A stretch of DNA of 64,000 nucleotides from Acidimicrobiia bacterium (GCA_035512955.1 DATKCZ010000027.1:40949-104948), one strand, 5' to 3'; positions 51,668-64,000 are shown, counted from the first letter of the stretch. Numbers and translations are program-made. Notes: generated by a model not told the origin, from the letters alone.

Positions 51668-52906
51668 CTAAGCGGTGGGGAGAGTGCGCACCACCGCGGC
51701 GAGGGCGTCGTAGGCCCTCTCCCCAATGTGCTTGTCGTCCTCGTCCAAGAGATTGGCCATCACCTTCAGGGTCCACTCCATGAGCGAGCGGTTGCGCATC
51801 CCGGTGTGGGCGAGGGTGCGCATCACCGAGGGATATCCGATCAGCTGCACGAAAATCCGCGCCATCTTGTAGTACAGGCCGTACTCGTCGTCGAGCCGCT
51901 GCGGATAGCGACGGAGCAGCCCGAGATCGTCGTGGCCCAGGGCCTGGGCGACATATTCGGCTGCGATGCGGCCGGTCTCATAGCCATAGGCGATGCCCTC
52001 GCCGTTCCAGGGGTTGATGGCGCCGGCGGCATCGCCGATCGTGACCCAGTTCGCACCAACAAGCGGGCTCTTCGAATAGGACATCGTCAACTTGCCGCCC
52101 ATCGGCTTGCCCAGGCTCGCCTCCTCGCTCAAACCCCAGTAGTCGGGGGCGGTGGCGACATAGTCGTTCATCATGTGGGTGGTGTTGACGTCCTTCCACT
52201 TCTTGAAGGTGGAGAGCAGACCGACACCAACGTTCACGGTTCCGTCGCCGAGGGGGAAGACCCAGCCGTAACCGGGTATCGTCGCCCCCGAGGAATCGCG
52301 TAGGTCGAGCTGGCTCTCCAGGAACGGCTCGTCGGACCGGGGCGATGCGTAGTACCCCCGGGCGGCCATCCCCAGCGGGTAGTCACGTCGCCGCGACGTC
52401 CCCAGCTCTCGCCCGAACCGGTTCATGGAGCCGTCGGCGATGATGGTGACATCGGGGGTCACCCGCTCGTTGGCCTCGCCGTTGGCCAGAGCGACCGAAA
52501 TCAGCCGGCCGTCTTCGATGACAGGGGTGGCGGTGGTCTTCTCCCTGATCCGCACCCCCTCCTTCTCGGCGAGACGGGCCACCTGGACGTCGAGGTCCCG
52601 CCGTCTGATCACCCCGCCCCAGTTGGGGAAGCGGCTGTGCTCCGGCCAGGGCATCTCGATCATGAGGTCGTCCCCCGCATAGGACCGCAGGCCGGTGATC
52701 CGGTGGAACTCGGGAACGTCGAAGTCGAAACCCATGTCCTGGAGCTGGAGAATGGCTCTCGGGGTGAGGCCATCGCCGCATGTCTTCTCCCTCGGGTACT
52801 CCTTCTTCTCCACCACGGTGACGTCGATGCCGTCCCGGGCCATCCAATAGGCCGCGGCGGAGCCGGCGGGGCCCCCGCCGACAACGAGAACGGTGGGTGA
52901 TGACAT
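51668..52906 (-). CDS. Geranylgeranyl reductase-family flavoprotein (MenJ-like menaquinone side-chain reductase)
   Basis: VVGGGPAGS, PREKTCGDGLTP, GYGWVFP, GDAAGAINPWNGEGIAYG motifs. Position directly upstream of nuoA as in other actinobacteria. Confidence 0.85.
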   Translation of the reverse strand: MSSPTVLVVGGGPAGSAAAYWMARDGIDVTVVEKKEYPREKTCGDGLTPRAILQLQDMGFDFDVPEFHRITGLRSYAGDDLMIEMPWPEHSRFPNWGGVIRRRDLDVQVARLAEKEGVRIREKTTATPVIEDGRLISVALANGEANERVTPDVTIIADGSMNRFGRELGTSRRRDYPLGMAARGYYASPRSDEPFLESQLDLRDSSGATIPGYGWVFPLGDGTVNVGVGLLSTFKKWKDVNTTHMMNDYVATAPDYWGLSEEASLGKPMGGKLTMSYSKSPLVGANWVTIGDAAGAINPWNGEGIAYGYETGRIAAEYVAQALGHDDLGLLRRYPQRLDDEYGLYYKMARIFVQLIGYPSVMRTLAHTGMRNRSLMEWTLKVMANLLDEDDKHIGERAYDALAAVVRTLPTA

Positions 52907-52969
52907 GTGCGAGAGATGGTAAATCGTCGAGTGGGGAACCAAGAAGTGCGGCTGTATCGTCCAGCCCCG

Positions 52970-53578
52970 ATGAGCGGGCTTTCACGCGCCACCGTTGCCC
53001 GGATGCCGAGATATCTGCGGCTCCTCGACGACTTGCGGGAATCGCAGAGCACGGTCAGCTCGGGTGAGCTGGCGGACGCCGCCGGGGTCAACCCGGCCAA
53101 CGTGCGACGTGACCTCTCAGACCTCGGCTTTCAGGGGACCCGTGGGGTGGGGTACTCGGTGGGCGACCTCAGGTCACGGATAAGACGCGAGCTGGGCATC
53201 GACGGGCGCCGACGGGTGGCCATCGTCGGGGCGGGGAACCTGGGAACCGCCCTGGCCCGCTACAACGGGCTGATCCAGCGTGGTTTCGATGTGATGGCGA
53301 TCTATGACGTCGACCCGCGGCGGATCGGACAGCGGGTGGGAGATGTGGAGGTCACCGACGCCTCATCGATCGCCAACGACTGCCAGAGCGGCATGTTCGA
53401 CATGGCGATCATCGCGGTGCCTGCCGGGTCGGCCCAACAGGTGGCCAATCAGCTGGTCTCAGCCGGGGTCTCCTCGATCCTCAACTTCGCTCCGGTACGG
53501 GTGGTGGTCCCCGACCAGGTCGCGGTGCGTCATGTCGACCTCTCGACCGAGCTACAGATCCTCAGCTACTACGGATGA
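52970..53578 (+). CDS. rex: Redox-sensing transcriptional repressor Rex
   Basis: ATVARMPRYLR, VSSGELA, VRRDLS, GTRGVGY winged helix; VGAGNLG NAD-binding motif; ILNFAP. Confidence 0.93.
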   Translation: MSGLSRATVARMPRYLRLLDDLRESQSTVSSGELADAAGVNPANVRRDLSDLGFQGTRGVGYSVGDLRSRIRRELGIDGRRRVAIVGAGNLGTALARYNGLIQRGFDVMAIYDVDPRRIGQRVGDVEVTDASSIANDCQSGMFDMAIIAVPAGSAQQVANQLVSAGVSSILNFAPVRVVVPDQVAVRHVDLSTELQILSYYG

Positions 53579-53692: not shown

Positions 53693-54963
53693 TGTGTTCT
53701 TTCAGCGGATCCCTCACACATGTCGCGGGGCATCCCTCATGCCTGGATGGTGAGCAAGTGACCATCGGGGCTTATGAGAAGGGATGTGCCGATGAGTATC
53801 AGACGGTTGATCGTCGAGGTTGAGTTGGAGGGGTTGAACGTGACCGAGTTCTGTGCTCAGCACGGGGTGTCGACGTGGTTTTTCTATCAGCTGCGGAAAC
53901 GGTATGCGGCCGAGGGTGAGGCTGGTCTGGAGCCTCGTTCCAGGGCGGCGAAGACGGTGGCTAACCGGACTCCGGACTGGGTGGAGGATCTGGTGGTGGA
54001 GAAACGCAAAGAGCTCGTCGACGCCGGCTGGGATGCCGGGCCGGCGACGATCTGGACTCACCTGTCAGAGAGCCTTCCCCTCGAGTTGGTCCCGTCGGAG
54101 GCGACGATCTGGCGGATCCTGACCCGCCGGGGGTTTATCACCCCGGAACCAAAGAAGGCTCCGGAACACTCCTATCGGACGTTTGCTGCGGAGCGGGCCA
54201 ACGAGTGCTGGCAGCTCGACGACATCGGATACGAGCTCGTCGACGGCACCGCTGTGAAGATCATCACCATCATCGATGACTGCACTCGGCTGTGTCCCCG
54301 CCTGAAAGCAGTCGTATCGGTCAACGGCCAGGCCGCCTTTGACGCCTTCTGTGCCGCTGCCACAAGATGGGGTTGGCCCCAAAGGTTCCTATCCGACAAC
54401 GCCAACGCCTACAAGATCAGCCTCGCTGGCGCCGTCGGTGCCATCGGCGTCGACCACCGCCACGGACGCCCCGGCCACCCCCAGACCCAAGGGAAAGTGG
54501 AACGCTTCCACCAGACACTCCAGAAATGGCTCAAAGCCCAGCCGTCGCCATCAAACCTAGAAGCACTCCAATCCCAGCTCGACGACTTCACCGACCACTA
54601 CAACACGAAACGGCCCCACCGGGCCATCGGCCGCAAACCCCCCGCCACCATCTGGAAACAAACCCCCAAGACAGGACCAGCCGACCGGCCCCTAACCACC
54701 CCCACCAGCATCCACCGAGTCACCGTCACCGGCGGCATCTGCCACATCAACAAGACCTACTCCATCACCATCGGAGCAGCCCACACCGGTCAGCAAGCCA
54801 CCGTCATAATCACCGACCTCACCTGCCACGTGTTCATCGCCGGTCGACTCATCCGCCAACTAACCCTCGACCCCACCCGCCGCTACCAACCCCTATACGA
54901 TCGACCAGGAAGACCATGAGGTATGCCCCGCGACAACCATGAGGGATGCCCCGCGACAACACA
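53693..54963 (+). mobile_element. IS481-family insertion sequence (1271 bp)
   Basis: TGTGT...ACACA ends; two 21-bp subterminal repeats per end (TGTCGCGGGGCATCCCTCATG at 53721-53741, inverted at 54938-54958 and 54915-54935; degenerate copy at 53698-53718); flanked by a 16-bp direct repeat CTTCGCTGAGCGACGT (53677-53692, 54964-54979). Confidence 0.92.
53792..54919 (+). CDS. IS481-family DDE transposase
   Basis: N-terminal HTH (FCAQHGVSTWFFYQLRKRY), WQLDD, FLSDNANAY, GKVERFHQTL catalytic motifs; uninterrupted. ATG 53792 has an SD; 53774 is the alternative start. Confidence 0.93.
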   Translation: MSIRRLIVEVELEGLNVTEFCAQHGVSTWFFYQLRKRYAAEGEAGLEPRSRAAKTVANRTPDWVEDLVVEKRKELVDAGWDAGPATIWTHLSESLPLELVPSEATIWRILTRRGFITPEPKKAPEHSYRTFAAERANECWQLDDIGYELVDGTAVKIITIIDDCTRLCPRLKAVVSVNGQAAFDAFCAAATRWGWPQRFLSDNANAYKISLAGAVGAIGVDHRHGRPGHPQTQGKVERFHQTLQKWLKAQPSPSNLEALQSQLDDFTDHYNTKRPHRAIGRKPPATIWKQTPKTGPADRPLTTPTSIHRVTVTGGICHINKTYSITIGAAHTGQQATVIITDLTCHVFIAGRLIRQLTLDPTRRYQPLYDRPGRP

Positions 54964-55009: not shown

Positions 55010-55369
55010 CTAGCCCCCGGCCTCTTTGGTCTCCTCGAACTGGTGGAGGGCGACCAGGAAGACCAGAAACAGGACCAGGGAGACCAGGAGATAGGTGATG
55101 GGGATCACCCTGATCTCGAAGGCGTTGAGACCCTCGATGTTGTCGGGCTTGGGGCCGCGGGGCGCGTAGACGACGAAGAGCAGTGAGGTGATCGTCAGCC
55201 AGCCGAACACGGCTGCACCGGTCACCAAGAAGCCGAGCCGCTTGCCCAGGTTGGTTCGGTTGAACAGGTAGATCGAGCCGTAGAACAACAGCACCGAGGC
55301 CGCGGTGAGGATGATCCCTGTGACGAAGAGGTTCGCCGACAGCAGAGATCGGAAGAGCTCACGAAACAC
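55010..55369 (-). CDS. Small 3-TM membrane protein, last gene of the Rieske/cytochrome b operon
   Basis: Three hydrophobic segments; starts 2 nt after the cytochrome c stop. Confidence 0.75.
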   Translation of the reverse strand: MFRELFRSLLSANLFVTGIILTAASVLLFYGSIYLFNRTNLGKRLGFLVTGAAVFGWLTITSLLFVVYAPRGPKPDNIEGLNAFEIRVIPITYLLVSLVLFLVFLVALHQFEETKEAGG

Positions 55370-55371
55370 GC

Positions 55372-57078
55372 CTACTCCATCCCGTCCAAGTTGCCGCTGC
55401 GAAGATACCGCGCCAGTAGCTCGATGTCGGCCTGGTCGAGGATCAACCCGAAAGCGGGCATCCGACCCGATCCGAAACCGTTGAGCCCATATGGCGTCTG
55501 CGCCTCGGAGCCGTTGATGAGAAAGTCGACGAGCAGATCGGTCTCGGCTTCGTCCTGGGGGGGCTCACCGAACTGCACCACCGGGCGCCCGTCCCAGAGC
55601 GCCGGCCCGAACCCACCGGCGCCGGCCTCCTGGGTATAGGGGGTGCCGGCGCTGAAACCGGCGGTATGACATCGGGCACAGTTGGCGTTGAAGAGCCCCA
55701 CCGCCCGAAGGGCCTCGTCCTCGCTGGCTCCCATCGCCTCGGCGACACCGGGGATGTCGATCTCCCATGCGGCTTGTTCCTGGGCCATCAGCAAGAACTC
55801 CAGACCGGCCTCTTGCTGTGGGCGAATCCTCGATACGTTCTCCACCGTGACGCCGACGTTGATGGCCGCGGTCTCCAGGCCGCCAACCATGTTCGAGGCG
55901 GTTCTCATGTCGGGCTCTCCGGGCACCGACTGGGGATTGGCCGGATCGAGGTCGATCCGGGTCAGCGTGCGCGGGACGGTGGCGCCGCTGGCCGTGGTGA
56001 ACAGCGCAGAGATCGTGCCCTCGGCCCCGTCGGAGATCCCATCGCCATCGCTGTCGGGGTTCTCCGCAGTGATCTCATCGCCCTGCAACGCCGCAGTGAC
56101 GTCGGCCAGGGTGACCTGGAGAATCGGGTCGTCCTCGGACGCCTCGGTGAGCTGGGCGAGGGCATCGTCCAACAGCTCGGCGTCGGCTGTTTGAGGGTCG
56201 AGAGTCAATGCATCGACCACCCGGAAGTGATCGACCGCCGCGGCGGAGATGGCGGAAAGCTCGACTTCTGCGGCGTCGGACAACCCGTCCGCGTCGGTGT
56301 CTATCCCCTCCACCGCGTTGGCCAGCAACTCGGAGGCCCGCTCTGCCAGCGGCTCGATGACGACGAGGTCGGCGGCTGCCTGATCGATCTCGGCAACCAC
56401 CTGACGCTGGCTCACTATCGCCGCCTCCACCGTGGCGTCGGCGTTGGCGAGACGACTGAGCTGTTCGGCGGTGGCGGCCACGGTCTCGTCGACGGCCTGC
56501 TGTTGGGGGACCTGGATGGTCGCTAGGTAGTTGACGACATCACGGACCTGGTTCTCGTTCATTGGGCCGCCGCCATCGAGACCCCACGCCGGCATCGGGG
56601 TGTTGCCCCGGCCGTAGGTGACCCAGAAGTTGACCTCGTCCTCGTCGTAGCGAAAGAGAACATCGTCCAACGAAGGTGCGGTCCAGGACACGGTGACACC
56701 TGACCGCTTCTCCACGAAGGAGGCGACCCCGCCCGAGCCGAGGGGGCCGTGACAGTCGAAACAACCGAACTCGTCGACGAGGTGGAGGCCGCGTTCGATC
56801 GATGCTGTGGAGAACTCCTCGACAAAGCCGTCCTGGCGGTTCGACTCGCTGAGGAAGTAGAGAGGAAGGGAGATCGCCAGGAAGGCGGAGAAGGCTATCG
56901 CCGCCTTCTGGCCGCCCTCGAGACGTCTCGTCTCGAGTTGCTGGTCGTCGATTCCGGGCTTGAGGTTGGGGGAGACCTCCTCTGCACCACCCCGGTTCCT
57001 CAGCGCTGAGACCAACAGGAGGCCGAGCCACACGATCCCGGCCACCACTGCCAGGACCGTGATCACATCTGCGGTCAT
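55372..57078 (-). CDS. Membrane-anchored diheme cytochrome c with a large inter-heme insert
   Basis: Two N-terminal TM helices; CFDCH...MPAW and CARCH...MPAF; two DxDxDG[LI]SD repeats in the insert. Confidence 0.88.
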   Translation of the reverse strand: MTADVITVLAVVAGIVWLGLLLVSALRNRGGAEEVSPNLKPGIDDQQLETRRLEGGQKAAIAFSAFLAISLPLYFLSESNRQDGFVEEFSTASIERGLHLVDEFGCFDCHGPLGSGGVASFVEKRSGVTVSWTAPSLDDVLFRYDEDEVNFWVTYGRGNTPMPAWGLDGGGPMNENQVRDVVNYLATIQVPQQQAVDETVAATAEQLSRLANADATVEAAIVSQRQVVAEIDQAAADLVVIEPLAERASELLANAVEGIDTDADGLSDAAEVELSAISAAAVDHFRVVDALTLDPQTADAELLDDALAQLTEASEDDPILQVTLADVTAALQGDEITAENPDSDGDGISDGAEGTISALFTTASGATVPRTLTRIDLDPANPQSVPGEPDMRTASNMVGGLETAAINVGVTVENVSRIRPQQEAGLEFLLMAQEQAAWEIDIPGVAEAMGASEDEALRAVGLFNANCARCHTAGFSAGTPYTQEAGAGGFGPALWDGRPVVQFGEPPQDEAETDLLVDFLINGSEAQTPYGLNGFGSGRMPAFGLILDQADIELLARYLRSGNLDGME

Positions 57079-57081
57079 GCC

Positions 57082-57969
57082 CTAGGCCTCTTCATCCGCG
57101 GCGATGGCGCCGATGCAGCTCGGGCCCTGCGGATAGGGCACGCTCGGTGTGGCGGCGCGAGGGGTCTCGATGATCGATCCGGTGCGCACGATGAACCGAT
57201 CGCCGTCGCGCACCTCGACCTCGAAGCGATCGAGGTTCCTCGGGGCGGGCCCGGCGAAGTACTCGCCGACCGAGTTGTACTTCGACCCGTGACACGGGCA
57301 CTCGAATCCGATCGAGGTGGCGCACCAGGGAACGCGACAGCCGAGATGCACGCACCGCTGGAACAGGGCCATCAGCCCAGCCGCCTCGACGTTCCTGCCC
57401 TCGAACTGCTCGGAGAGAGTGTCGGGGGCGGGGACGATGTAGGCCCTGGCCTCGGGGACGAACACCGGGACCACCGAGCCGTCCGCCGTAACCGTCTGCG
57501 CGGTGATCGCCTCCACCGCGCCGGCGTCGACATCGGAGCCAAAGCCCCCAGTGAGCTTGGGCCAGAAGAACGCCAACGAGTAGAGCCCCATCAAGCCGAG
57601 GAACGAGCCGAAGGTGGCGGTGATTGCGCGATTGAAGAACTGGCGACGGCTGACCCCCGACTCCTCCACGGAGACCTCGACCACACGCTGGGTCTCGACG
57701 AGCTCGACACCGGCAGCCACCGGCTCGGGCTCGACCTCCTCGACGACGACTTCCTCGTCCAGGGCCGGGGGCTCATCCTCAGGGATCTCGATCGGCTCCA
57801 CCCGGACACCGGCCATCGATCGGTCTGCGCGCCGGGTCTCCTCGGAGACCCCGGCGGTGGGGTCGGGACGTTCGGCTCGGGTGCGGCGAAAGGCGATGGT
57901 GAAGGCACCGAGAGCACCGAAGATGGCGAAGAAACCGACGGCGACGAGGACCCAGTTGGTGAATGTCAT
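57082..57969 (-). CDS. Rieske [2Fe-2S] subunit of the Rieske/cytochrome b complex
   Basis: CVHLGC and CPCHGSKY boxes; N-terminal TM, acidic linker, then SRRQFF twin-arginine TM. ATG overlaps the upstream stop. Confidence 0.93.
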   Translation of the reverse strand: MTFTNWVLVAVGFFAIFGALGAFTIAFRRTRAERPDPTAGVSEETRRADRSMAGVRVEPIEIPEDEPPALDEEVVVEEVEPEPVAAGVELVETQRVVEVSVEESGVSRRQFFNRAITATFGSFLGLMGLYSLAFFWPKLTGGFGSDVDAGAVEAITAQTVTADGSVVPVFVPEARAYIVPAPDTLSEQFEGRNVEAAGLMALFQRCVHLGCRVPWCATSIGFECPCHGSKYNSVGEYFAGPAPRNLDRFEVEVRDGDRFIVRTGSIIETPRAATPSVPYPQGPSCIGAIAADEEA

Positions 57970-59054
57970 TCGAAATGCACCCAGTCCCTCAGGTCGTCGA
58001 AGAAGACCCCGTCCCGCCAAGGGTAGGAGAAGTTGAACCCCTGGCCCCGGAACAACACGCCGAACATCGTCAACGTGGCCGATCCGGCCAGGAACAGCGA
58101 GAAGAGCATGATGGCGAACTTCCGGTCGGACGGTCTCGTCGACGGGTTCTTGTCGACGTAGGGGATCATCATGAACCCGATCAGCCCGATGAAGAGCGGG
58201 ACCATGACACCGGCGATCTGGGGGTCGAAGTAGCTGAGCAGCTCCTGAAGCCCGAGGAAGTACCACGGGGCCTTCGAGGGGTTGGGAGTGCTGTTGAAGT
58301 TGGCGGGGTCCAACAAGGGTGAGTGGATGACCACCGACATGACCACCAGCACACCGGTTATGAGGAGCAACGCCCCGAACTCCATGAGCATCAAATGCGG
58401 CCAGGTGTTGACCTTGTCGGTGGGCTCGGGTCTGACGTTCTGGATCGCCCTGGCCTTGACCACCGTCAGCAGCCGTTGGGTCCGGACGCCCTCGGGGAGA
58501 CCCGCAGGCGGCACCGAAGGGCGGGGGCTCACCGTCGAGGCGACCTTGCCGTTGCCTGCGCCATCCGCACTCGGTGCCTCGACCGCCTCCACTTCGACTG
58601 CTGGGGCCAGCTCGTCCGTATCGGCCTCTTCGGTCACCGTCCCTTTGGCTTCCTCAGGCTCCGCTTCCTCAGGCTCCGCTTCCTCAGGCTCCTCTTCCTC
58701 GGGCTCCCCGTCCTTTGTCACCGCCACCGCCCCGGCTTCGGCCAGATTTGGCGCCGCTGACTCCGCGGGGGGCGGGATCTCGGCTTCGTGGGGGTCGACC
58801 GGGGCAACGTCTTGTTCCATGTTCGTCTCGATCTCCGGGGTCCCGGCATCGTCATCCTCGGGAACCTCGTCGACCGGGCTCTCGACGTCTTCGATGGTCT
58901 CGGTCACCGGGTCGGGCCCGGCGGCCGACTGGGGCACCTCGACCGGAGGGCCCTCCCCCTTCATCTCGGCCAGGACCTGGTCCACCGGCACACCAAGGGC
59001 CTTGGCCTTGGCTTCCGCCGATCTTCTCAGCAGGCTCTCTGGTATCTCAACCAA
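57966..59054 (-). CDS. Cytochrome b6 subunit IV (PetD-like) with a long acidic N-terminal extension
   Basis: TWPHL, PNPSKAPWYFLGLQELL (PEWY-equivalent), PYVDKNP. TTG 59054 preceded by GGAG. Confidence 0.88.
   Translation of the reverse strand: MVEIPESLLRRSAEAKAKALGVPVDQVLAEMKGEGPPVEVPQSAAGPDPVTETIEDVESPVDEVPEDDDAGTPEIETNMEQDVAPVDPHEAEIPPPAESAAPNLAEAGAVAVTKDGEPEEEEPEEAEPEEAEPEEAKGTVTEEADTDELAPAVEVEAVEAPSADGAGNGKVASTVSPRPSVPPAGLPEGVRTQRLLTVVKARAIQNVRPEPTDKVNTWPHLMLMEFGALLLITGVLVVMSVVIHSPLLDPANFNSTPNPSKAPWYFLGLQELLSYFDPQIAGVMVPLFIGLIGFMMIPYVDKNPSTRPSDRKFAIMLFSLFLAGSATLTMFGVLFRGQGFNFSYPWRDGVFFDDLRDWVHFE
58648..58707. repeat. 15-bp coding tandem repeat (EPEE[EA] x4) in the subunit IV linker
   Basis: GCTTCCTCAGGCTCC x3 exact, plus TCTTCCTCGGGCTCC. 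Confidence 0.8.
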
Positions 59055-59064
59055 CAGTGACTCC

Positions 59065-59838
59065 TTACAAGGGTCCGGAGATTCCGCCGTCCTTGCGGAC
59101 GCGCCAGAAGTGGATGGCCATGAAGATGACGATGATGAATGGGAAGGCGAGCACGTGGAGGACATAGAACCGGAGCAAGGTCGCACCGGTCACCTCGACC
59201 CCGGCCAACAAGGCAAACTTGACCTGATCACCGATCACCGGGGAGAAGCCGGCCATGTTGGAGCCGACGGTGACGGCCCACAGTGCCAATTGGTCCCAAG
59301 GCAGCAGGTAGCCGGAGAAGGAGAGGAAGAGGGTGAGGAACAACAAGACGACTCCGACGACCCAGTTGAACTCACGTGGCGGCTTGTAGGCACCGTGATA
59401 GAAGACTCGGCTCATATGGAGGAAGACGGAGAGGACCATGAGGTGGGCGCCCCACCTGTGGAGGTTCCTCACCAGCGACCCGAAGGCGACGTTGGTCGAG
59501 AGCGCCTCCATGTCGGCGTAGGCGATCTCCGCGGTCGGGGTGTAATAGAACATCAGGAAGATGCCGGTGATGGTGAGGAGGATGAAGAGAAAGAAGCTGA
59601 GCCCACCGAGACAGAGGGTGTAGGACAACTTGACCCCGTGACGTTTCACCTTGACCGGGTGGAGGTGATAGAGCACGTTGTTCATCACCACGTAGGAGCG
59701 GTTGCGGGGGCTGTCCGAATAGCCCTGCTTGAACGGGGATCCGGGACGCATGATCGACTCGGCGAGCTGTGAGCTCCACAGCCACTCGGTCCCTTCCCGG
59801 ATCCGGTCTCTCAGGCCGACTTTGTCTCCGTTAGCCAC
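59065..59838 (-). CDS. Cytochrome b6-type (split, 4-helix) cytochrome b
   Basis: YTLCLGGL (heme ci Cys), [37 protein letters not shown] (14-residue His spacing), C-terminal KDGGISGPL. Confidence 0.95.
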
Positions 59839-59847
59839 TACGCCTCC

Positions 59848-60297
59848 CTACCAGCGCATTCCGTACGTATAGCCATTCTTGAAGTCGCGCTGCCCGGTGT
59901 CGAAATCCCAGGGGCGGCGATCGAGACCTAGCTCGGCGGCCTGTTCGGCCAGCGAGCCCTCGAACTTGCCGAGTGAGATCACATTGGTCGGACAGCGGTC
60001 GACACAGAGCGCACACCTGGTGCACTCGTCCTCGTCGACGATGAAGAAGCCGAAGTTCTGCTCGTCCTCGATCGGGTGGTCGACGTTGACCGCCTCATCG
60101 ATGGCCGTCAGCGAGAGGTAAAAGATGCACTTCCACGGGCAGATATCGACACAGCCCTCACAGAGGATGCACTCCGATTGGTCGATGTGGAGGAACTGCT
60201 TGGGACGGAGCTTGTCGGCGAAGTACTCACCGTCGACCAGGGCGAGCTGGTAGTCGTCTCTGATCGGGGGCGTCTCGTCGACTACACCTTTGGGCAT
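59848..60297 (-). CDS. 2x[4Fe-4S] ferredoxin-like protein
   Basis: CILCEGCVDICP and CTRCALCVDRCP; no signal peptide or TM. Confidence 0.9.
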   Translation of the reverse strand: MPKGVVDETPPIRDDYQLALVDGEYFADKLRPKQFLHIDQSECILCEGCVDICPWKCIFYLSLTAIDEAVNVDHPIEDEQNFGFFIVDEDECTRCALCVDRCPTNVISLGKFEGSLAEQAAELGLDRRPWDFDTGQRDFKNGYTYGMRW

Positions 60298-60298
60298 C

Positions 60299-60928
60299 TC
60301 AGTTACCCTTCACCAGCGGCCGGCCATAGGGCGACTTCTTCTCGACCGGAGCCGCGCTCGGCGGCCGTCCTTGCTTCATCTTCTGTATCTGGATCGCCAG
60401 GAAACCGGCGAAGCCCAACAGTCCCAGGCTATATCCCATCTGGATGGAGTCCTTGATCGCGGCATAGCTGATCGAGAGGTCGTTGCCCAGGACCAGCAGC
60501 GGCGGGACGGTCACCGCCACCCGCTGTGAAGACCAGTCGAGATCGGTCTGTGCGTAGTTGAGCCACTCCGAGGGGACCATGCCGAAGTAGAACACCAACG
60601 CGGTGAAGGTGATGAGGGCGGCCACGGTGGCCCGTGCCCAGGTCATCCTCTGGTTGAGGACCCAGAGGAACGTGGCGCCGAGGAAGGTCATGGTGGTGGC
60701 GCCCAGGACGATCAGGTAGCCGATCCCCTTCCACACCGTGCCCCGCGGCCACCAGTTGAGGAAGTCGACGACCACTGGCACCTCGACGCCGTCGACCACC
60801 TCGGTCTGGGGGATCGACGACCAGTGGATCCAGATCACGCCCAACACCAGCCCGACAAAGCCGAGAGCCAGCAGGCCGGTGCCGATCATCCGGCGGCGGC
60901 TGTCGCTGAGTTCTGCGAGGCGGTACAT
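60299..60928 (-). CDS. Uncharacterised multi-TM membrane protein, first gene of the operon
   Basis: Several hydrophobic helices; stop lies 1 nt before the ferredoxin ATG. Confidence 0.75.
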   Translation of the reverse strand: MYRLAELSDSRRRMIGTGLLALGFVGLVLGVIWIHWSSIPQTEVVDGVEVPVVVDFLNWWPRGTVWKGIGYLIVLGATTMTFLGATFLWVLNQRMTWARATVAALITFTALVFYFGMVPSEWLNYAQTDLDWSSQRVAVTVPPLLVLGNDLSISYAAIKDSIQMGYSLGLLGFAGFLAIQIQKMKQGRPPSAAPVEKKSPYGRPLVKGN

Positions 60929-61103
60929 CTTGGTTATGCGATCCCGGGACGCGTAGAAAGCGTTCGTTGGTGCGTTTTTACCACAGGTGGAGGTTGGTTC
61001 GGGAACCCGACTGCCACACGGCGACAGTCTCGGGTCGGGCTGCGGACTCGATCCACGAAGTCGTTATGCTCCCGCCGTCTCATCTCTCGCGCGAGGAAGT
61101 CGG

Positions 61104-62543
61104 TTGGCTGACACCCGAAATGCAGACATTCGAGCCCTGCTCGGCGGTGGTTCCACCGAGGACCGACTCGCCGCGATCCATTTCATGGTGGGAGCCCTCT
61201 TTCTCGTCATCGGTGGCGCCATCCAACTGTTGTCGCTGGTGGCGCTGCGCTTTGCCGATCTGCTCCCCATCTCGTACGGCCTTCTCGAGCCGGCGGCCAA
61301 CCTGACGCTGATGATCGGTTTCGCCGCGATCTCCCTAGTCGGCGGGGTTTATTACGTCGTCCCCCGTCTCACCGGGGCCCGTCTGCGCAACGCCACGCTC
61401 GGGGGGCTCGGGCTGGCGGGGATGGCGGGTTTGACGGGTCTCGGTGTCGTGGCCATCTTGACCGGCTTGGGGGACGGGGGCCAACCGCTGGGCCTGGCCT
61501 GGTGGCTCGACATCCCCCTCGCCCTCGTCCTCTTCATTCCCGCGATGATCACTCTCGACACCATCCGGCACCGCACCGAGCGGCGCAGCTTCGTCACGCT
61601 GTGGTTCGTCGTGGGCGGTGTGGTCTGGCTTCCTTTGCTCTACCTCGCCCACCTGGTCACCGAGCTCCCTTTTGCCTCACAGGTCGGAATCGCCTTCGCC
61701 GAGACGTTCTTCTCCGCCGGTTTCGTCACCATGTTCCTGGTCACGGTGGGGTCGGGGCTGGTCTATTACACGACGGTCAAGGAGATGGACCTCCCCCTGG
61801 CCAGCCGTCAGCTCGCCCTGGTCGGGTTCTGGTCGCTCGGGTTTGCCGCGGCCTGGTGGGGCGCCGCGCAATTGCTGTTCGGTCCCGGTCCCGACTGGGT
61901 GGCCGGGGTCGCCGCCGCCCTCGGTCTTGCCTTCCCGCTGGGCGCGCTGGCCAACGCGGCGAACGTGTCGATGACCCTCGAGGGCTCGTGGTCCCGGCTC
62001 GCCGAGCAACCCGGCGTTCTATCGGGTGTGATCGGGCTCTACCTGACGGTGGGTGTGGCGGCGGTCGCCGCCCTGGCAGGCTTCCGCTCGGTCGGTTCGG
62101 TGGCTGCCACCACTCCGCTGTGGGAGGCCATCGAATACGTGCTCCTGGCCGGCGTCGCCACGCTGCTCGTCTCCGGTGTCGCCTTCGCCGCCCTGCCCAG
62201 GATCGTGGGGAGAGAGCTCGAGACCAAAGCCAAGGCACGACGCTTCCATCGGTTGACGGTGACGGGGGCGGTAGGTGTCCTCGTCACGCTGGGTGGGGCC
62301 GGAGTCCTGGCGGGCTACTCCTGGATCGGCGGCTCGAACAGCGGTGCCTACATCGACGCCGGCGAGGGCTGGGCCGCCGGAATGGGCGCCTCATATGACA
62401 CTTTGGTGCTCGCCGCGGTGGTCTTCGGCATCGTCCTCTTCGCCGGTCTGGGCGGCTATGCGTCGATCGTCTTCGGCACCGTGGCCAGGGGCAGGGCAGC
62501 CTCCCAGGAGGTCCTCGTTGCCAAGGTGGCCCGGGATGAGTGA
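61104..62543 (+). CDS. CcoN-like (cbb3 oxidase subunit I fold) protein lacking heme/Cu His ligands
   Basis: About 12 TM helices colinear with CcoN (SYGLLEP, YYVVPR, WWLDI, FVTLWF, PDW, MTLEGSWSRL, LPRIVGR). TTG 61104 lies 6 nt after GAGGA. Confidence 0.85.
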   Translation: MADTRNADIRALLGGGSTEDRLAAIHFMVGALFLVIGGAIQLLSLVALRFADLLPISYGLLEPAANLTLMIGFAAISLVGGVYYVVPRLTGARLRNATLGGLGLAGMAGLTGLGVVAILTGLGDGGQPLGLAWWLDIPLALVLFIPAMITLDTIRHRTERRSFVTLWFVVGGVVWLPLLYLAHLVTELPFASQVGIAFAETFFSAGFVTMFLVTVGSGLVYYTTVKEMDLPLASRQLALVGFWSLGFAAAWWGAAQLLFGPGPDWVAGVAAALGLAFPLGALANAANVSMTLEGSWSRLAEQPGVLSGVIGLYLTVGVAAVAALAGFRSVGSVAATTPLWEAIEYVLLAGVATLLVSGVAFAALPRIVGRELETKAKARRFHRLTVTGAVGVLVTLGGAGVLAGYSWIGGSNSGAYIDAGEGWAAGMGASYDTLVLAAVVFGIVLFAGLGGYASIVFGTVARGRAASQEVLVAKVARDE

Positions 62544-63306
62544 CCAGCTCGCCGCGGCCGCGGCGGCGATGGGCCTGCCCGAGGCGTTGGTGCAGCGATC
62601 GGCCGAGGCGCGCTCTGAAGAGACCGGCGCCAGCGTCGAGGACATCCTCGCCCAATGGGTGGCCGGTGAGACGGCCCCGGTGGCGGCGGCGCCCCAAGCA
62701 CCACCAGTCGAAGAGGCAGCCGAGCCTGACGAGGCCCTCCCCGAGGAGGCCACCACCACACCGGAGATCGTCATCGAGGTGCCCGATGGGGCCGAGACTC
62801 CGACCCCTGCGCCACAGCCCATCGCCGTCGGCCCCTACAAGCCACCTGTCCTGGTCGGCCACGAGGACAGCCCGATGACCCTGCTCGCCGGAGTCGTCGG
62901 GCTCTTCATCATCGTGATGATGGTGGGTCTGGTGGGCCCGTCGATCCCGGTCGACGAACCCGGTGCTCGCAGCTCCGAGATCGCGTTCTCGGAGGCTGCC
63001 CTGGCAGGCCGGGAGGTCTATGCCGTGTCGGGATGCGCGGCATGTCACACTCAGATGGTTCGCCCCGTCGTCGCCGACGTAGGTCTCGGCGCGGTGACAC
63101 TCAACGACACCAACCAGATCCTGGGCACGAGGCGGTTCGGGCCCGATCTCTCCGATGTCGGCTCGCGGGTCGGCTCCGATCAGATGCAAGCAATCGTCGC
63201 CGGTCAGGGCACCCATCCCGCCCACAATCTCAGCCCCACCGACCTCGAGAGCCTCGTCGCCTATCTGAGCGAGTCCCGGACCTCGTCAGGACCGGCGCCG
63301 TCGTGA
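62536..63306 (+). CDS. CcoO-like monoheme cytochrome c with an N-terminal module and acidic linker
   Basis: GREVYAVSGCAACHTQMVRP and LGTRRFGPDLSDVG are CcoO hallmarks; ATG overlaps the end of the upstream gene. Confidence 0.85.
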   Translation: MSDQLAAAAAAMGLPEALVQRSAEARSEETGASVEDILAQWVAGETAPVAAAPQAPPVEEAAEPDEALPEEATTTPEIVIEVPDGAETPTPAPQPIAVGPYKPPVLVGHEDSPMTLLAGVVGLFIIVMMVGLVGPSIPVDEPGARSSEIAFSEAALAGREVYAVSGCAACHTQMVRPVVADVGLGAVTLNDTNQILGTRRFGPDLSDVGSRVGSDQMQAIVAGQGTHPAHNLSPTDLESLVAYLSESRTSSGPAPS

Positions 63307-64000
63307 GTCTCAGCGCAGCAGCTCAGGCCCTGGGGCTCCCCGAAGCCCTGGTGCAACGATCCGCCGAGGCTCGGGCCGCCGAGAGCGGTGCCAGCGTCGA
63401 TGAGGTCCTCGCTGCCTGGGCGGGCGGTGGGGCCGTCGAGCCGGCCCCGGCGCCCGAGCCCGAGCCCGCCGGCGCCGAGGAGACGCCCGAAGCGGCCGAG
63501 ACGCCCGAGGAGACCGCCGCAGAACCGGTGGTCGAGGCGGCACAGCCCGCGGCCGCCAGCGCCGCCGCACCGGCTCCCACCCCTACAAGAGCCCCGGTCC
63601 CCGCGGAGGTCGGTGCAGCCGAAGCCGCTCATCTCCCCGAGGTGATCACCGTGCCGACGGCGGGGATCAAGGAGCGGACCAACTTCGTGATCCCCCGATG
63701 GCTGACGGCAGTCATGCTGGTCGCCCCTTTGTTCGCCCTCTTCGCCCTGGGGGGCTCGGCCACCGGGGAATGTGGGGAAGGCACCGAGCTGGCCATCGAC
63801 GTCATCTCCGGGGAGATCATCAACTGCGACGGCTCGGAGTTCACCGGTGGCGGGGCGGGTGGCGGAGGGACCGATTTCATCACCCTGGGCGCCGACCTCT
63901 ATTCGGGTTCGGTCACCCCGGCGGCCACCTGTGCCGGTTGTCATGGGGCCGGGGGGCAGGGCAGCGCCAGCTTCCCCTCGCTGGCCGACGTGGTCACCAC
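63303..64000 (+). CDS. Membrane-anchored cytochrome c (CcoP-position), runs off the window
   Basis: Hand translation from GTG 63303 (GTGA overlap): VSLSAAAQALGLPEALVQRSAEAR..., TM WLTAVMLVAPLFALFALGG, heme motif CAGCH near 63930. Confidence 0.82.
   Translation, partial: MSLSAAAQALGLPEALVQRSAEARAAESGASVDEVLAAWAGGGAVEPAPAPEPEPAGAEETPEAAETPEETAAEPVVEAAQPAAASAAAPAPTPTRAPVPAEVGAAEAAHLPEVITVPTAGIKERTNFVIPRWLTAVMLVAPLFALFALGGSATGECGEGTELAIDVISGEIINCDGSEFTGGGAGGGGTDFITLGADLYSGSVTPAATCAGCHGAGGQGSASFPSLADVVT

Follow-up and report, generated by a model that had tools for sequence, protein, structure and literature searches.

In a 64,000-nucleotide (nt) stretch of the genome of an Acidimicrobiia bacterium (GCA_035512955.1, DATKCZ010000027.1:40949-104948; the whole stretch is termed the window), the minus strand carries a cluster of seven open reading frames (ORFs) at positions 55010-60928. 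This cluster encodes a Rieske/cytochrome b complex together with a small ferredoxin that has two [4Fe-4S] cluster motifs. The gene order is memA, ferredoxin, cytochrome b6, subunit IV, Rieske protein, cytochrome c and memB (Table 1). Families were assigned to the window proteins by Pfam and NCBIfam profile searches.

Table 1. Genes of the minus-strand cluster, listed from the first gene to the last (aa, amino acids; TM, transmembrane).
Gene or product	Coordinates	Strand	Description	Profile match
memA	60299..60928	-	209-aa membrane protein; first gene of the operon	no family
2x[4Fe-4S] ferredoxin	59848..60297	-	149 aa	Fer4 PF00037, 1.1e-12
cytochrome b6	59065..59838	-	257 aa; N-terminal four-helix half of cytochrome b	PF00033, 2.1e-46
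subunit IV	57966..59054	-	362 aa	PF00032, 3.9e-7
Rieske iron-sulfur protein	57082..57969	-	295 aa	PF00355
dihaem cytochrome c	55372..57078	-	568 aa; membrane-anchored	PF13442 and PF00034, two stretches each
memB	55010..55369	-	119-aa 3-TM protein; last gene of the operon	no family

An earlier note on this DNA, made without database searches, described seven closely spaced genes with gaps of 10 nt or less or with overlaps, and both the ORFs and the junctions read directly from the sequence agree with that description. Specifically, a single nucleotide separates the memA TGA from the ferredoxin ATG, and the ferredoxin TAG is followed by a 9 nt spacer that includes GGGAGG and then by the GTG of b6. 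The ferredoxin and b6 genes share a reading frame across this TAG. Ten nucleotides that include the Shine-Dalgarno sequence AAGGAG lie between the b6 TAA and the TTG of subunit IV, an ATGA overlap joins the subunit IV and Rieske genes, and the two remaining gaps measure 3 nt (Rieske to cytochrome c) and 2 nt (cytochrome c to memB). The raw ORF list over-extends two starts, which were corrected to 59054 (TTG) for subunit IV and to 57969 for the Rieske protein. Consensus scans for promoter- or terminator-like sites inside the cluster gave none above the shuffled expectation. Because the spacers are 10 nt or less or the genes overlap, because Shine-Dalgarno sequences are present, and because internal signals do not exceed chance, the sequence indicates that the seven genes form one operon. 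The genome, a 2.1-Mb metagenome-assembled genome (MAG) that is 85% complete, contains a single cytochrome b, and so the product of this operon is the organism's only complex III and not an auxiliary one.

The cytochrome b half of the cluster has the features of a b6-type complex. A CLGG motif occupies b6 residues 76-79 (59613-59602), where TLCLGG aligns to FYCLGG of solved b6 proteins. The haem-ligating His pairs are found in helix B (H127/H141, with 13 residues between them) and in helix D (H228/H243, with 14 between), and these four ligands are kept in 84-86 of 86 aligned sequences. The CxGG motif is present in 85 of the 86, including one sequence from a genome that lacks the ferredoxin. The b6 protein ends in GISGPL. 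It scores 296.8 bits against the NCBIfam model cytb_ExtP (cut-off 290) and 208.7 bits against the cytochrome b6 model, and the QcrCAB models remain far under their cut-offs (QcrB 109.2 against 500 bits, QcrA 23.8 against 275, QcrC 15.5 against 200). The best matches of b6 among solved structures are cyanobacterial and chloroplast cytochrome b6 chains (1.8e-46). Weaker matches are the bc1 cytochromes b (approximately 1e-36), and mycobacterial and corynebacterial QcrB proteins come last (approximately 1e-22). Thus, the split cytochrome b, the CLGG at 59602-59613, the 14-residue His spacing in helix D and the GISGPL end given in the earlier note are all present in the sequence, and its assignment of the complex to the b6 type, unlike the actinobacterial QcrCAB, is upheld by the NCBIfam scores and by the structural matches (1e-46 for b6 versus 1e-22 for QcrB).

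We surveyed the locus in 80 species-level genome loci, all from Acidimicrobiia and including Ca. Actinomarina and Spongiisociaceae. Subunit IV carries the sequence KAPWYF, with the Qo motif APWY, in 80 of 80 loci, which assigns the complex to the APWY clade described by Kao and Hunte (PMC4122944). This clade, which is without a characterised member, includes sequences from Deltaproteobacteria, Chloroflexi, Nitrospirales, Planctomycetes and deep Actinobacteria. The same study counts Ilumatobacter (Acidimicrobiia) as one of the actinobacteria whose split cytochrome b falls in the APWY or the PEWY-cyt c clade (PMC4122944). These data identify the complex as a b6-type, APWY-clade menaquinol:cytochrome c oxidoreductase.

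The remaining subunits show several further features. The N-terminal 78 residues of b6, on the n-side, are basic (12 K/R). Subunit IV begins with a cytoplasmic module and an acidic linker that precede its three TM helices. This start (58380-59054) consists of a small helical module, EIPESLLRRSAEAKAKALGVPVDQVLAEMKG, and then a linker of approximately 150 residues rich in Glu, Pro and Ala, on the cytoplasmic side. Subunit IV also stays long in the lineages without ferredoxin described below (244-280 aa, against a core of approximately 170). The sequence WPHLMLMEF precedes its helix E, and the F aligns to Phe40 of PetD, a residue in contact with haem ci. Directly before this Phe40 equivalent, the Glu of the motif (58379-58381) is invariant in all 80 loci with a subunit IV match. 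Judging from this alignment, the Glu might be a ligand, axial or nearly so, of a low-potential haem ci; for low-potential, menaquinone-type complexes, PMC12954380 cites reports in which a Glu ligates haem ci. In the Rieske protein, a TM helix at the N-terminus is followed by an acidic loop, by an SRRQFF motif resembling a twin-arginine translocation (Tat) signal, by a second hydrophobic segment and then by CVHLGC...CPCHGS; its PetC-like score of 70.6 bits is under the cut-off. In the dihaem cytochrome c, an acidic insert of approximately 350 residues separates the haem domains with the motifs CFDCH and CARCH. Hydropathy predicts 3-4 TM helices in MemA, which gave only a sub-threshold match to DUF7139, and three in MemB. 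The memB gene is present in 59 of the 80 loci, of which the remainder may include loci that end too soon.

Comparison with known systems sets this complex apart from each of its closest counterparts. With cytochrome b6f and the Firmicute/heliobacterial b6c-type reductases it shares a four-helix b6 and three-helix subunit IV, the CxGG motif, the 13/14 His spacing and the GISGPL end. In contrast to these enzymes, its Qo motif is APWY and not PEWY or PDWY, its b6 N-terminus is longer by approximately 50 residues, and its operon further encodes a ferredoxin dedicated to it, a dihaem cytochrome c and two extra membrane proteins. No bound dicluster subunit is listed among the matched solved b6f/bc structures. 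The actinobacterial QcrCAB bc1 complex (of the bcc-aa3 supercomplex) is found in the same phylum and likewise has menaquinol as substrate and a dihaem cytochrome c, whereas QcrB is unsplit and lacks both CxGG and a ferredoxin. Geobacter Cbc6/ExtOPQ, from the APWY clade and the cytb_ExtP family, resembles the window complex in its APWY motif, split cytochrome b and CxGG. In the Geobacter ext cluster, a porin and a rhodanese accompany the multihaem cytochromes, and a ferredoxin is absent (PMC5877670). Among the window neighbours, we found none of the ExtKLMNS multihaem proteins, the porin ExtI or the rhodanese ExtH, and the ExtQ score is 52.5 against 150 bits. The name ExtP reflects the cytochrome b clade only, and the window does not hold an ext system. 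The possibility that Geobacter Cbc6/ExtM is an iron-sulfur protein, in which case the ferredoxin would be a feature already known from this clade, was rejected, as ExtM and ExtN are multihaem cytochromes (PMC5877670).

The ferredoxin has two complete CxxCxxCxxxCP motifs. It has no TM helix and no signal peptide, which supports the cytoplasmic location given in the earlier note, and with 29 acidic and 14 basic residues it carries a net charge of -15, which would lie opposite the basic N-terminal region of b6. An N-terminal extension, PP.RDDY.L..VD...KPK, lies outside the Fer4 fold and is conserved with invariant residues, and Acidimicrobiia-type proteins also share a conserved C-terminal tail, ...RDFKNGY.YGMRW. 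In an alignment of 125 ferredoxin sequences, the cluster ligands C43, C46, C49, C53, C92, C95, C98 and C102 are invariant, as are Y16, D51, P54, W55, C57, I58, F85, D88, R94, R101 and P103. Two of these residues, the ninth cysteine Cys57 (60127-60129) and Trp55 (60133-60135), form a CPWxC sequence beside the final ligand of cluster I. At the equivalent position, a typical Fer4 domain reads CPxxA. The names NuoI, PreA and formate hydrogenlyase subunit 6 that databases give to the protein are misleading. An AlphaFold2 model of the monomer reached a predicted local distance difference test (pLDDT) score of 37 with 36 sequences and 68 with 125, with disordered tails. As in PsaC of photosystem I and NdhI/NuoI of complex I, eight cysteines form a dicluster arrangement with a long spacer between the motifs, and the protein gives weak sequence or fold matches to NdhI, PsaC and PscB. 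The role proposed below, that of a terminal wire to a soluble ferredoxin, would be analogous to theirs. Unlike PsaC and NdhI, the protein carries N- and C-terminal extensions particular to it and has another host complex, and no clear specific homology was seen beyond the Fer4 fold.

The ferredoxin gene is inherited together with the b6 gene. A set of 5.8 billion proteins contains 1771 relatives of the ferredoxin, the top 120 of which are at least 72% identical to it. The b6 gene begins within 400 nt downstream of the ferredoxin gene, on the same strand, in 74 of the 74 Acidimicrobiia loci with room for it, and in 74 of 75 loci the gene immediately upstream of the ferredoxin is memA. Across Acidimicrobiia, the identity of the ferredoxin (59-91%) and of b6 (73-90%) is above that of the Rieske protein, the cytochrome c and MemA. 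Furthermore, an exhaustive HMMER search recovered more distant full-length relatives that share the PP.RDDY.L..VD...KPK extension. The gene order is unchanged in all three subfamilies that stand at 29-41% identity to the window protein: a small membrane protein comes first, and ferredoxin, b6, subunit IV, Rieske and cytochrome c follow. The two further subfamilies that this search brought in come, where the source is named, nearly all from Actinomycetota, with two stray bin labels, and the family seems to be restricted to this phylum.

A sample of 401 Actinomycetota genomes, each from a different species, gave a similar picture. A strong ferredoxin match occurs in 157 of them and an ExtP-like b6 in 159, and 154 genomes (approximately 38%, from 28 families) have both. 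The ferredoxin is the upstream neighbour of b6 in 134 of 135 co-listed pairs; the exception is split across two contig ends. The earlier note had made conservation of the ferredoxin with the cluster a condition of its reading, set beforehand, and this conservation holds in the Acidimicrobiia loci and in the phylum-wide pairs alike. We conclude that the ferredoxin is inherited with b6 in a fixed memA-ferredoxin-b6 order in Acidimicrobiia and in at least 17 further families of Actinomycetota. In the sampled Actinomycetota genomes, the ferredoxin was not found near other types of cytochrome b (QcrB, a split TLGS type and a Firmicute-like YCFGG type), nor was it found in the two sampled Acidimicrobiia genomes with a QcrB-type cytochrome b. 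Four long matches in the representative library that resembled fusions (P0131, P0171, P0189 and P0239) proved to be frameshifted assemblies and were rejected as Rosetta-stone fusions.

Outside its own family, the window ferredoxin is most closely related to the dicluster domains at the C-terminus of GltD-like NAD(P) flavoproteins. Eight of nine longer non-family matches examined from 1.84 billion representatives are GltD-like, with Fer4_20 and Pyr_redox_2 domains, and match through the C-terminal dicluster domain; these proteins have approximately 550-730 aa, plus one fragment of 285 aa. In one Actinomycetota genome (G066), a 644-aa GltD-like flavoprotein (Fer4_20, Pyr_redox_2) that ends in a 2x[4Fe-4S] domain is encoded two genes upstream of b6, in place of the small ferredoxin. 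The b6 of this genome lacks the cysteine (SFGLGI) and is the single exception to CxGG among the 86 aligned sequences. At this locus (L089, G066:C78, 754-8720), the gene order is histidine kinase, response regulator, the flavoprotein, cytochrome c, cytochrome b, subunit IV (APWY), Rieske and cytochrome c. The window ferredoxin and the flavoprotein C-terminus are 34% identical in an alignment of 71 residues that runs without a gap through the long spacer between the cluster motifs; Fer4 domains are promiscuous.

The domain layout of the G066 cluster is as described for the cytoplasmic subunit of anammox Rieske/cytochrome b complexes. Anammox clusters carry cytoplasmic redox subunits (PMC5600118, PMC12954380), a point on which the earlier note was correct. 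Specifically, AlphaFold3 models of the Kuenenia complexes place an NAD(P) reductase on the n-side, with a [4Fe-4S]/[3Fe-4S] chain running from haem cN or a predicted central haem b to flavin adenine dinucleotide (FAD) (PMC12954380). The window complex resembles Kuste4569-4574 and Kustd1480-1485 in having a b6-type core with iron-sulfur clusters on the cytoplasmic side. It differs from the anammox complexes by lacking an FAD or NAD(P) domain and multihaem or HAO-like subunits, by having two clusters where they have approximately four, and by serving as the sole complex III of an aerobic-type heterotroph. Dibrova et al. reportedly placed the anammox Rieske/cytochrome b complexes in subfamily G. 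The similarities in sequence and position are suggestive of a ferredoxin that would correspond to the membrane-proximal dicluster module of an anammox-type NAD(P)-flavoprotein arm, standing alone without the flavin.

The ferredoxin belongs to the operon, and we infer where it might dock and what it might do. The reading that we prefer is that the ferredoxin is an accessory subunit that wires the n-side of the complex to a soluble partner, with inward electron flow favoured, and we judge its chances to be about even. The protein would be a stoichiometric, cytoplasm-facing subunit, and its two [4Fe-4S] clusters would link haem bH, haem ci and the Qi pocket to a soluble cytoplasmic redox partner. 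With inward flow, electrons from a reduced low-potential ferredoxin would pass through the clusters to haem ci and then to menaquinone at Qi, so that the complex would act as an integral ferredoxin:menaquinone reductase or would provide the second electron at Qi. This direction is favoured because it is downhill, whereas the reduction of clusters at approximately -400 mV from the n-side haems would be uphill. We regard as possible, with distinctly less confidence, the specific proposal that the complex is a hard-wired ferredoxin:quinone reductase on a b6-type core, in which the dicluster subunit would pass cytoplasmic electrons via haem ci to Qi. If true, this complex would be the respiratory counterpart of the debated ferredoxin-to-b6f cyclic route, and a simplified ancestor, or descendant, of the NAD(P) arm of the anammox complexes.

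The genome encodes the alpha subunit of a 2-oxoacid:ferredoxin oxidoreductase (641 bits, contig C5:97644-99437), and no 2-oxoglutarate dehydrogenase E1 above 26 bits was found in this 85% complete MAG. The closest sampled relative (G047) likewise has a 2-oxoacid:ferredoxin oxidoreductase without 2-oxoglutarate dehydrogenase E1. An aerobic cell with such an oxidoreductase would need an outlet for reduced ferredoxin.

Several observations weigh against the wiring of a soluble partner through the ferredoxin to Qi. Four genomes of one family (f57; G164, G203, G177 and G229, at loci L087, L088, L094 and L095) have an ExtP-like b6 and no ferredoxin anywhere. These genomes keep memA, b6 and the cysteine (YCLGG in G164, CLGG in G203). 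In the three where memA was detected, it is followed directly by b6 at a distance of 45-91 nt. Since sister genera retain the ferredoxin, the gene was deleted cleanly. Relaxation in the four ferredoxin-less b6 sequences is small and not concentrated on the n-side, and this comparison gave no docking footprint: among 128 near-invariant b6 positions, 10 are changed in the ferredoxin-less sequences and 5 in their ferredoxin-bearing sisters. A Foldseek search of the Protein Data Bank with the pLDDT-68 monomer returned generic dicluster folds (FwdF, NdhI, PscB and PsaC), with a best E-value of 0.011 and a TM-score of approximately 0.33. Among 44 genomes, a 2-oxoacid:ferredoxin oxidoreductase occurs in 23 of 27 that bear the ferredoxin and in 10 of 17 that lack it, and two complete ferredoxin-bearing genomes do not have this enzyme. 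Co-variation of the ferredoxin with the oxidoreductase, or with loss of 2-oxoglutarate dehydrogenase, was rejected as not specific. Finally, the direction of flow is favoured on general thermodynamics only.

The losses also constrain the role of the ferredoxin. CxGG occurs without ferredoxin both in the Firmicute-like YCFGG lineage and in f57, and because the motif persists in these lineages, haem ci would not need the ferredoxin and the link between the two is one-way. Because four genomes lost the ferredoxin cleanly yet kept the haem-ci cysteine, the ferredoxin is accessory to the Q cycle and not required for it. The ferredoxin-less f57 genomes are natural knock-outs that can be used as controls.

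The electrons might instead flow outward. In such a bifurcating scheme, the low-potential electron of the quinol would pass via bL, bH/ci and the clusters to a soluble ferredoxin or flavodoxin and not to the Qi quinone. The kinship of the ferredoxin with the dicluster domains of NAD(P)-flavoproteins from anammox-type clusters is compatible with this direction. The anammox arms have been proposed to export electrons that make NAD(P)H (PMC12954380), and unconventional or reverse operation has been suggested for the APWY clade (PMC4122944). However, the window ferredoxin lacks a flavin or NAD(P) domain, NADH is plentiful in aerobic heterotrophs, and the enzyme, as the sole complex III of the organism, has to support normal respiration through a functional Qi site. 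The reduction of low-potential clusters from the n-side haems would also have to proceed uphill, against the membrane potential. We consider outward flow unlikely.

A similarly low probability is assigned to a bound ferredoxin that has no soluble partner and serves as an n-side electron buffer, as a redox or oxygen sensor, or as a structural cap that tunes Qi or haem ci. As is usual for a tightly packed subunit, the sequence is conserved and includes invariant residues other than the ligands, the extra invariant Cys57 sits beside cluster I, and a role of this kind would suit a protein that is dispensable in one lineage and does not co-vary with ferredoxin-producing enzymes. The retention of two complete low-potential-type cluster motifs throughout the phylum suggests conduction instead, and the relatives of the protein are conducting domains of oxidoreductases. 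Less probable again is that the ferredoxin is not a subunit at all, and is a soluble protein merely co-expressed for biogenesis, such as the attachment of haem ci, or for another enzyme. Haem ci is attached on the n-side, a step that in chloroplasts needs dedicated factors, and the ferredoxin occurs only alongside a CxGG-bearing b6. Nevertheless, the Firmicute-like and ferredoxin-less lineages keep the cysteine without the ferredoxin, which is as conserved as b6 and holds a fixed, translationally coupled position between memA and b6 in all but the one contig-split pair. It is highly improbable that the ferredoxin is a periplasmic iron-sulfur subunit carried across the membrane together with the Tat-dependent Rieske protein. 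The Rieske protein does have the SRRQFF motif, and some exported iron-sulfur proteins have no signal of their own, but this ferredoxin combines the lack of a signal peptide with a strongly acidic composition, and its closest relatives are domains of NAD(P)-binding, and hence cytoplasmic, flavoproteins.

The b6-type core, the APWY clade, its presence in Acidimicrobiia and the existence of cytoplasmic oxidoreductase subunits on small cytochromes b are already published. A search of 8.4 million papers and preprints, with Dibrova et al. 2013 and ten Brink et al. 2013 not among the texts read, found no description of the ferredoxin subunit or of its phylum-wide distribution. The purpose of haem ci, and the entry of electrons from ferredoxin on the n-side of b6-type complexes, have been argued since the b6f structures were determined, and tests in chloroplasts are hard because any partner binds only transiently. 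Here, a candidate partner is encoded in the operon itself, in approximately 38% of the Actinomycetota species sampled, including the marine Ca. Actinomarina. With an operon-encoded partner and natural deletions, there is both a stable complex for purification and a control that nature provides. The system also ties the NAD(P)-linked complexes of anammox bacteria to a much commoner and simpler form.

Several genes recur beside the operon. A gene for a Rex-type redox-sensing repressor (Put_DNA-bind_N and CoA_binding domains; 52907-53578, plus strand) lies just past the operon end in 40 of the 80 loci, and a Rex-type gene is likewise found beside the operon in the distant subfamilies (loci L002, L086 and L093). 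In the window, an IS481-type transposase (53774-54919) separates this gene from the operon. A Rex operator of the form TGTG-N8-12-CACA was found upstream of memA in only 1 of 86 loci, and none was found in the window. A geranylgeranyl-reductase-like FAD protein (51668-52942, minus strand) is a neighbour of the operon in 30 of the 80 loci. On the other side, a divergent operon (60987-64000, plus strand) encodes CcoN-like and CcoO-like proteins and a further cytochrome c, and it stands beside the b6 operon in 74 of the 80 loci. Two short motifs in the divergent intergenic region upstream of memA (60929-61130) recur in close relatives. TGTGGTA(A/G)AAAC is found in approximately 17 loci and GGCGGGAGCATAAC in approximately 14-20, and both are candidate promoter elements of the two divergent operons.

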